A stretch of 64,000 nucleotides of DNA from a virus. Taxonomy: Duplodnaviria > Caudoviricetes. The translations under genes and the position numbers were made by a program. Below are positions 62,158 to 64,000 of this stretch, piece after piece. Position 1 is the stretch's first letter, and every line of letters begins with the position of its first letter. Location of the stretch: the IMG/VR virus record IMGVR_UViG_3300027751_000009, positions 14,891 through 78,890 of that record; one strand, given 5' to 3'. The notes beneath the pieces were generated by a model that worked only from the letters and a program-made list of their open reading frames with translations, ran no database searches and was not told where the DNA came from.

Positions 62158-62677
62158 AGTACATAATCGGTTTGTGATACAGATTAGGTGCTTCTAAACC
62201 ATAATGTAGATTAGAATGCAGAACTGTAGCTTCACGAAACCTTTGGTACTGACTTACTGCTTTCTTAACAGTACGGTCATATGCTACTACTTTGTTGGTA
62301 ATAGCATCTCGCATCACTTCACCTAAGCTATTCTTAACTGGATTGTATATTTCATCTACACATTCCAATTTATAGTTCTCTAAAGCTGGTACACCATCAG
62401 CTGGCTTGAAGTGTACTAAGGCAAATGGGCTCTCGTTATAGAGTGCTCTAGTGCTCTTGTTTACATCAATGATATCATCTGTAATGTACAGTTGATTGGC
62501 ATATCTGTTGTTCACATTAATTTTTGTGTCTTGTTTCTTGTTAAGCAATCTCCACATCAATAATGCAGATAGATTAACTGTTACACAAGTCCACTCTCTT
62601 TGGTTAGCATAAGCATATTGAAACAATGCTGTACGCTTTCCATAGTTGACATTTGTCAAATAATGAAATAGTTTCAT
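62156..62677 (-). CDS. Hypothetical protein
   Basis: Likely start MKLFHY at 62677 (the track start overlaps the upstream gene). Confidence 0.55.
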   Translation of the reverse strand: MKLFHYLTNVNYGKRTALFQYAYANQREWTCVTVNLSALLMWRLLNKKQDTKINVNNRYANQLYITDDIIDVNKSTRALYNESPFALVHFKPADGVPALENYKLECVDEIYNPVKNSLGEVMRDAITNKVVAYDRTVKKAVSQYQRFREATVLHSNLHYGLEAPNLYHKPIMY

Positions 62678-62729
62678 AATATAGTTGTCGATTGATCCAC
62701 TGCTGACCACAGCTTTAAATGTTATATTA

Positions 62730-63053: not shown

Positions 63054-63325
63054 TTATTAAGGTCTTTAGAGATACGTTTGTCTAAATCATTAAACTCATT
63101 AGCTATAGCTATTATACCTGCTATAACCTTTGGATTAGTAGATAGATTCTCAACTGACTTGAATATATTACTATACACACTAATAACTTGATTAACCATC
63201 TTGATATCATCTGTTTGTGTTTCTTTAGCTAACTCTGATTGAACTGCTAATAAGCATCTGTTTACTAATGATGCTATTTCATAAGCCTTGATAGCTTTCT
63301 CTGCAATACTCTTTTCTGGTCCCAT
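63050..63325 (-). CDS. Hypothetical helical protein
   Basis: Packed operon. Confidence 0.6.
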   Translation of the reverse strand: MGPEKSIAEKAIKAYEIASLVNRCLLAVQSELAKETQTDDIKMVNQVISVYSNIFKSVENLSTNPKVIAGIIAIANEFNDLDKRISKDLNK

Positions 63326-63327
63326 GA

Positions 63328-63510
63328 TTACTTGCCAGATTTAGATTGTTCGTACCCAGTCTTTAGTCCTTTAAAGAACCCAGACCCTACTTGTTTCAAT
63401 AAGCCTAAACCCATTGATGCATACACTACTGCATTAGCTGTAATGTCAATTGTTGTTTGCTCTACCACTGATACAGCAGGAGCTTTCTTTGTTGCGGCTT
63501 TCTTTGCCAT
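63328..63510 (-). CDS. Small basic/amphipathic early protein downstream of the hammerhead
   Basis: Likely start MAKKAATKK at 63510 by analogy with the other motif copies. Confidence 0.6.
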   Translation of the reverse strand: MAKKAATKKAPAVSVVEQTTIDITANAVVYASMGLGLLKQVGSGFFKGLKTGYEQSKSGK

Positions 63511-63537
63511 GTTTTTTGCGCTCATTGCGACTTTATT
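63511..63537 (-). promoter_or_regulatory. Conserved hairpin motif, copy A
   Basis: AATAAAG T CGC AATGA GCG C AAAAAAC then ATG. Confidence 0.6.
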
Positions 63538-63543
63538 TATTAA

Positions 63544-63598
63544 TACTCCGTTTCATCCTCTTGGAATCATCAGGCACACCACACAGTGTACTACAGAA
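63544..63598 (-). ncRNA. Type III hammerhead ribozyme
   Basis: UUCU-GUA|-GUACAC-UGUGUG-GUGUGC-CUGAUGA-UUCC-AAGA-GGAU-GAAA-CGGAG: complete core, GUA cleavage triplet, stems I-III all pair. Confidence 0.85.
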
Positions 63599-63634
63599 AA
63601 TGAGTAGTTTATAGTCATACTCAGGACTATTGAA

Positions 63635-63862
63635 TTATAGTAGTATTTCCGCCCACTCTGATTGTTCAGCATAGGACACATAACCTTTGACAGTACCAGC
63701 TAATGTTTTTCTACCCGGATATACTCCACCAACTCTGATGTATGTATTTCCACAGTAACCTTTGAATACTTCTCTTGGCTCTTGAATGATAAAGATATCG
63801 GTCTCTACAATTCCGGTTCTACCATCTATAACTCTTAGCTTAAACTCTAATGTTCTCATCAC
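63635..63862 (-). CDS. Hypothetical early protein
   Basis: First - strand ORF in the window. Confidence 0.55.
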   Translation of the reverse strand: MMRTLEFKLRVIDGRTGIVETDIFIIQEPREVFKGYCGNTYIRVGGVYPGRKTLAGTVKGYVSYAEQSEWAEILL

Positions 63863-64000
63863 TAATTTTTTAAGTTATAAAAGACTCTCTTTTTCGGATA
63901 AATAGTTTATACCCCCCCTACCCGAAAATTGATTGAAGGGAGGGGTCAAACTACAATCTGTTACCCTCCCGCGTATAAATTTTTTTATAAAGTCTTTTTG

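Follow-up and report, generated by a model that had tools for sequence, protein, structure and literature searches.

The gap between the first and second genes of a leftward operon in this phage contains a short sequence that reads as a hammerhead ribozyme. The question that this locus raises is whether the sequence is a working self-cleaving RNA, the remains of one, or something that only looks like one, and what a cut at this place would do for the genes on either side of it. The window, that is the whole stretch of 64,000 nucleotides analyzed here, makes up the right-hand part of an IMG/VR contig of 78,890 bp, and positions are those of the window unless they are given for another contig. 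The 762-aa protein adjoining the region is a large terminase (TerL), with its best GenBank matches to crAss-like phages at ~25% identity and to Flavobacterium phages. The phage, which comes from an estuary, is probably a distant crAss-like phage with a host in the Bacteroidota. No match to the region was found among GenBank phages by blastn or megablast.

Anatomy and chance expectation of the element

All the parts of a type III hammerhead listed in an earlier note on this DNA could be read directly on the minus strand between 63598 and 63546. The complete element, from the outer stem III pair to its partner, spans 53 bases (63546..63598). It begins with the 5' arm of stem III, UUCUGU (63598-63593, with U16.1 at 63593), which runs into the triplet GUA (63594-63592). 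The predicted scissile bond (63591..63592) lies 3' of A17 (63592) and 5' of G1.1 (63591); this position was derived from the hammerhead consensus, N-U-H followed by the cut, and agrees with the cut between 63592 and 63591 that the note had predicted. Stem I is a hairpin at 63574..63591, GUACAC(U)/(G)GUGUGC, with 6 pairs and a closing U.G, and its loop is GUGU when the closing U.G is counted as a pair and UGUGUG when it is not. There follow the core strand C3-A9, CUGAUGA (63567..63573), stem II with U10.1.U11.1, then UCC/GGA and a loop of AAGA (63555..63566), and a last segment at 63546..63554, in which G12 A13 A14 A15.1 (GAAA, 63554-63551) precede the 3' arm of stem III, CGGAG (63550-63546).

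The invariant hammerhead core (C3 U4 G5 A6 N7 G8 A9, G12 A13 A14, A15.1-U16.1, H17) is complete, with 11 of 11 invariant nucleotides intact. Three helices surround it: stem I of 6-7 pairs and stem II of 3 pairs plus U.U, both closed by loops, and stem III of 6 pairs, which is open. Two places depart from the usual form. The pair at 10.1-11.1, which is Watson-Crick and usually G-C in type III hammerheads, is U.U in the window, and stem III has two U.G wobbles where most members of the family described below have U-A.

Folding with RNAfold gave the three-way junction as the minimum-energy fold of the 55-mer, with an unremarkable folding energy (z = -0.88). When the 141-nt context was folded the energy was no better than that of shuffled sequence (z = +0.42), and in the minimum-energy fold stem III was displaced by an alternative pairing that sequesters GAAA. 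This competing pairing (63545-63606, minus strand) joins UACUC with GAGUA and UUUC with GAAA, and so rivals the catalytic stem III in a longer transcript; on the folding model it could delay or modulate cleavage. Two further hairpins on the minus strand were predicted in the 141-nt fold. One is a small hairpin, AUAGUC...GACUAU (63611..63630), at the boundary of the first-gene cassette and 12 nt upstream of the hammerhead, and the other is a leader hairpin (63518..63531), called motif A in the note, between the ribozyme and AUG 63510.

The number of matches to be expected by chance was estimated from 72 Mb of first-order Markov sequence, as a count per genome over both strands. It was 0.37 for stems of at least 3/2/3 pairs, 0.03 for at least 4/3/4 and 0.004 for at least 5/3/5. 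No simulated match with stems of at least 6/3/6 occurred in the 72 Mb, and the window candidate is 7/3(+U.U)/6; the chance expectation for this motif is below about 1e-3 per genome. A descriptor scan of the 78.9-kb genome, relaxed stems included, found no further hammerhead-like site. Rarity in one genome settles little when very many windows are scanned, and homologues were therefore sought.

A phage hammerhead family and its U.U members

An ORF75-based scan of viral contigs and a search with an exact 30-mer of the ribozyme found no relatives, and homologues of ORF65, the gene downstream of the element, were confined to its own species. With TerL, 32 related viral contigs were retrieved. The closer relatives (TerL 66-87% identity; L017, L019-L022, L044 and L046) gave no hammerhead core and no model match in the equivalent 2-4 kb early region. 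These contigs keep the flanking synteny (a RepL-like gene, the ORF205 homologue and terminase-side genes), and since the closest syntenic relatives have no hammerhead, phages of this group can do without one. The small early ORFs that they carry from the ORF205 homologue to that of p133 are entirely different; turnover of the early region among the relatives is very fast.

A more distant relative, L036 (TerL 42% identity), has a canonical type III hammerhead (L036:1779-1827, minus strand) with a GUC site and G10.1-C11.1. Its element lengths are those of the window hammerhead (7 bp in stem I and 4 bp in stem II, each closed by a loop of 4 nt), and the UUCUGU arm is shared. It too is intergenic, on the strand opposite the structural genes and ~25 nt ahead of an AUG.

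In Rfam no family reached its gathering score in the whole window, RF00008 had no match in the whole genome, and the Rfam hammerhead models gave no match at E<=10 in a 251-nt search around the site, so that the check proposed in the note, Infernal with Rfam Hammerhead_3, left the window element unreported. RF00008 (Hammerhead_3, clan CL00010) has its topology (stem III open), core and cleavage-site rule in common with the window element, but its gathering score is 48.5 bits, and even the L036 hammerhead, which it aligned end to end, scored only 32.3 bits (E 3e-5 in a 401-nt search). On its own the silence of Rfam would speak against a hammerhead; because this canonical sibling likewise falls below the threshold, it was not counted against the ribozyme, and RF00008 appears to be poorly tuned to hammerheads of this phage family.

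The positions common to the window and L036 hammerheads were used as a search pattern, which matched 13 loci in IMG/VR and 100 stretches in JGI metagenomes. Of 74 unique pattern sequences, 55 fold as proper hammerheads and the remainder look like chance. A covariance-model search of the pattern loci yielded 95 members (94 distinct sequences), many of them outside the pattern, and many contigs carry 2-6 family hammerheads. In two contigs there are six within 3.5-6 kb, apparently one per intergenic gap (L111, between 63 and 3468 on the minus strand; L130, between 6487 and 12702 on the plus strand), a clustered arrangement like that in prophages.

Covariation was assessed across the family; all copies of the window's own element are identical, and therefore none is available within the species. 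In the alignment of 94 sequences 96.7% of cells were paired, compared with 74.0% in shuffles, and there were 369 two-sided changes, at 14 of the 17 pairs, compared with 79 in shuffles. None of 500 shuffles reached the observed values for pairing and two-sided changes. Fitting the alignment to the model favours pairing, but the margin over the controls was large; partners that had been slid were only 39-53% paired, which argues that the covariation signal is real. Stem I pairs covary heavily across the family.

A model built from 91 members with the window left out (R2) scored the window element at 64.9 bits (E 1.7e-13) over its full length. This was the sole match in the 64 kb, and R2 had no other in the contig L001. 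As ~20 positions had been fixed by the fishing pattern and resemble the window by construction, part of the 64.9 bits is owed to that construction; loop 1, the element lengths and the features of stem II were free. Loop 1 of the window, GUGU, is the commonest in the family (26/95), whilst its loop 2, AAGA, is rare (3/95, the family mode being AAAA). Loop 2 is purine-rich both in the window and in the family, which may bear on the loop 1 - loop 2 tertiary contact associated with fast cleavage at low Mg2+. The CUGAUGA heptamer of the window is present in 83 of the 95 members.

By this comparative evidence the window element is a genuine type III hammerhead, and homologues and covariation strongly support the note's assignment to that type. 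That an AT-rich genome should match the descriptor by chance would be compatible with the unremarkable folding energy, and at 0.004 matches per genome for 5/3/5 stems some are expected across very many windows. Chance would not account for the score from the independent model R2, nor for loop 1, the element lengths and the combination of U.U with A17, which were free of the search pattern and yet match a recurrent subclass, nor for a position on the sense strand, in an intergenic gap and at a family-typical distance from a start codon. We give this reading almost no credence; it is effectively refuted by the covariation, the U.U subclass and the R2 score.

The U10.1.U11.1 pair was found in 17 of the 95 family members. 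Around it there are five inner stem II pairings (UCC/GGA, UCU/AGA, UGC/GCA, UCA/UGA and AAG/CUU), the stem I arm takes 14 forms and the stem III arm four, and U.U and G-C forms stand side by side in six contigs. Such recurrence with varied stems, together with the coexistence with G-C, suggests that U-U is a maintained feature and not a product of decay. The pair is also associated with the base at the cleavage site. Among the U.U members A17 was seen in 16, U17 in one and C17 in none (alignment A2, family loci L049-L161), against C17 in 66 of the 76 members with G10.1-C11.1 (Fisher's exact test p = 3e-12, which is not a strict probability as the sequences are related). It may be that the cleavage-site base and the stem II-proximal pair are functionally coupled. 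The window element, with U.U and A17, is a genuine member of the subclass.

U10.1-U11.1 has been described before as a natural hammerhead variant, in which stem II likewise begins with U-U next to the core; the authors note that, of the mispairs tried there by mutagenesis in earlier work, U-U was reported to be the most active (Perreault et al., 2011; PMC3088659). The same paper used such a mispair at 10.1-11.1 as a first-pass criterion for rejection (PMC3088659). The difference here is that U-U forms a recurrent subclass tied to A17, a link of which the excerpted text makes no mention (PMC3088659). With 17 family members and a published natural variant, the note's concern that the U-U pair might inactivate the ribozyme is largely removed.

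The element could still be an inactive or barely active relic, a former hammerhead disabled by the U.U, the two G.U pairs in stem III and the competing fold. In addition to the non-canonical 10.1-11.1 pair, the silence of Rfam, the pairing of GAAA with UUUC in the longer transcript and the close relatives without a hammerhead at the site would be in line with this. Decay would be hard to reconcile with a U.U kept in 17 members with compensatory changes around it, beside canonical copies in the same genomes, with the description of U-U as a natural variant and its reported rank as the most active mispair there, or with a core whose 11 invariant nucleotides are all in place; the G.U pairs still pair, and the element is invariant in 15 contigs, though all are of one species. 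We consider a relic unlikely. From the comparisons, the element probably functions as a type III hammerhead ribozyme, one of a large family carried by phages, and we infer that it cleaves in vivo.

The variable first gene and a possible role for the cut

The genes of the leftward operon are, in order, ORF75 (or the allele ORF60), ORF65, ORF91, ORF107 and ORF205. ORF75, the first ORF (63635..63862, minus strand), is one of two alternative cassette alleles, and the hammerhead starts 36 nt past its stop. ORF65 lies downstream (63328..63525, minus strand; alternative start at AUG 63510), with a leader that would start at the ribozyme cut. The element is where the note had placed it, in the gap between the first and second ORFs and on the sense strand. 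The operon is presumed to be early from its position.

The two alleles came to light at the ends of the contig. Its first 99 bases (L001:1-99) are identical to window 63531-63629, and its last 124 bases (window 63877-64000) are identical to contig positions 330-453 (L001:330-453). Both ends read R - small ORF - P, with ORF60 at the left and ORF75 at the right. Independent contigs with an identical ORF65 protein have a single unit, composed of TerL-side genes, P, one small ORF, R and ORF65, in which the cassette slot holds ORF75 in most and ORF60 in L005. The presence of both alleles in one contig is thus explained by an assembly that wraps a circular or terminally redundant genome. The 99-nt perfect repeat was considered as a second, independent hammerhead copy, and this was rejected as the contig ends overlap and the independent contigs show one copy; there is one hammerhead per genome.

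ORF75 and ORF60 (window 63630-63876 versus L001:100-329) look unrelated, with only a short QSEW-type patch common to both. Judged by sequence comparison, they are alternative alleles of a swappable first-gene cassette between perfectly identical flanks. The downstream flanks are identical from 63629 downwards, which puts the boundary of the cassette at 63629/63630 and 31 nt ahead of the ribozyme. Whichever allele lies upstream, the 125-nt intergenic gap shows 100% identity among 15 independent contigs, all within one species. In two low-coverage contigs (L015:100-258 and L016:54-212) ORF75 carries a one-base deletion, TGTGGAAAT to TGTGAAAT, with truncation to 52 aa; either this is an error of sequencing, or it indicates that the phage can dispense with the first gene.

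Upstream of ORF75, the 124-nt block at 63877-64000 (minus strand) is identical in both allele contexts. In this block a C-rich/G-rich imperfect inverted repeat (CCCCTCCC ... GGGTAGGGGGGG) precedes TATAAA, which makes the block a candidate promoter or regulatory region for the operon. A scan of 63300-64000 found no sigma-70-like site on the minus strand and no terminator-like site, and no PHROGs family was found for the small early proteins. One estuary metatranscriptome contains a fifth of the sampled words from this genome; its assembled contigs cover 63400-63560 and 62453-62698 only, and as contigs they show neither ends, strands nor levels.

The family is placed in a regular manner with respect to translation starts. 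In 57 of the 94 distinct members an ATG-ORF starts 15-45 nt past the 3' end of the hammerhead (median 29 nt), compared with 12.7% of random positions on the same loci and strand, and a Shine-Dalgarno sequence often lies between the hammerhead and the start codon. From the 3' end of the window hammerhead the distance is 20 nt to AUG 63525 and 35 nt to AUG 63510, so that the 15-45 nt rule holds with either start.

This spacing also bears on the reading that the sequence works mainly at the level of DNA, as a homology arm or recombination boundary for cassette exchange, or as a non-catalytic RNA element such as a protein-binding leader, with an incidental likeness to a hammerhead. The ORF60 and ORF75 alleles do stand between perfectly identical blocks, the downstream one starting at 63629 so close to the hammerhead, and several independent assemblies break exactly at this downstream flank of the cassette. 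A recombination arm would, however, leave unexplained both the family-wide catalytic core with covarying stems in unrelated contexts and the fixed spacing to start codons, and the roles of recombination arm and ribozyme are not mutually exclusive. We regard a mainly DNA-level or non-catalytic function as quite improbable.

Returning to a functional ribozyme, its placement ahead of start codons makes co-transcriptional self-cleavage after A63592 the most likely mechanism. The leftward operon would be transcribed as ORF75 (or ORF60), ORF65, ORF91, ORF107 and ORF205, and the 53-nt motif would fold during transcription and cut itself between A63592 and G63591. The upstream piece would be the mRNA of the variable first gene, with a 2',3'-cyclic phosphate end. 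The downstream piece would begin with a 5'-OH on a base-paired G, the ribozyme remnant acting as a structured, cap-like 5' end, and would continue through a short A/U-rich leader of 20 or 35 nt to the start of ORF65. The message of the variable first gene would in this way be split from that of the downstream genes, and these conserved genes would receive a fixed 5' end and leader whatever stands upstream.

From the placement next to a variable cassette we infer that the cut has a leader-defining or insulating role. A 5'-OH on a base-paired G is expected to be a poor substrate for 5'-end-dependent RNases. RiboJ, an engineered hammerhead insulator placed just upstream of the ribosome-binding region, strips variable upstream RNA and makes expression context-independent, and the natural element may serve the same purpose.

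A broader proposal would join this role to the unusual pair. U.U with A17 would be a co-evolved alternative active-site arrangement, and so a distinct functional subclass rather than a tolerated defect, and the family would act as natural 'insulators' that give fixed 5'-OH leaders, here shielding conserved genes from a hypervariable first-gene cassette. Taken as a whole, this proposal is speculative and we put it forward tentatively.

Comparison with known phage hammerheads

With this analysis the leftward and presumably early operon of a probable distant crAss-like phage gains a well-supported, predicted self-cleaving ribozyme. It also exposes a populous family of type III phage hammerheads, missed by Rfam thresholds and regularly found ~30 nt ahead of start codons; in a sizeable subclass U.U, together with A17, stands in place of G10.1-C11.1, a pair that is normally invariant. 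The regularities in spacing and in U.U/A17 bear on the role of phage hammerheads, which may be to separate messages, to protect 5' ends or to insulate translation starts. As for the element, it exemplifies a phenomenon described in 2011, and the family-level regularities are the more interesting by-product.

It was in that year that hammerheads became known from the intergenic regions of phages and prophages, one of them situated directly ahead of a first early ORF (Perreault et al., 2011; PMC3088659). A literature search for hammerhead and crAss found no paper linking hammerheads to crAss-like phages. Like the window element, the phage and prophage hammerheads of Perreault et al. are sense-strand elements with an intact consensus core, and the gaps that they occupy separate small phage genes, and the role proposed for them is the processing of polycistronic phage RNA into shorter messages, with which the message separation suggested here agrees (PMC3088659). 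The prophage clusters in that account flank genes with several hammerheads; contigs of the window's wider family similarly have their 2-6 copies flanking single genes, whereas the window genome has a single copy (PMC3088659).

A further parallel is HHphage of the haloviruses HF1/HF2, where no more than 3 nt separate the cut from the 5' end mapped for an early transcript (PMC3088659). HHphage and the window element have this logic in common: an early message would owe its 5' end to a ribozyme, by a cut that in the window is predicted. HHphage is described in the same paper as a high-salt structural variant located 13 nt before the first ORF of an archaeal virus (PMC3088659), whereas the window element folds as a standard type III hammerhead, is followed after 20-35 nt by the second ORF and comes from a phage whose host is probably a member of the Bacteroidota.
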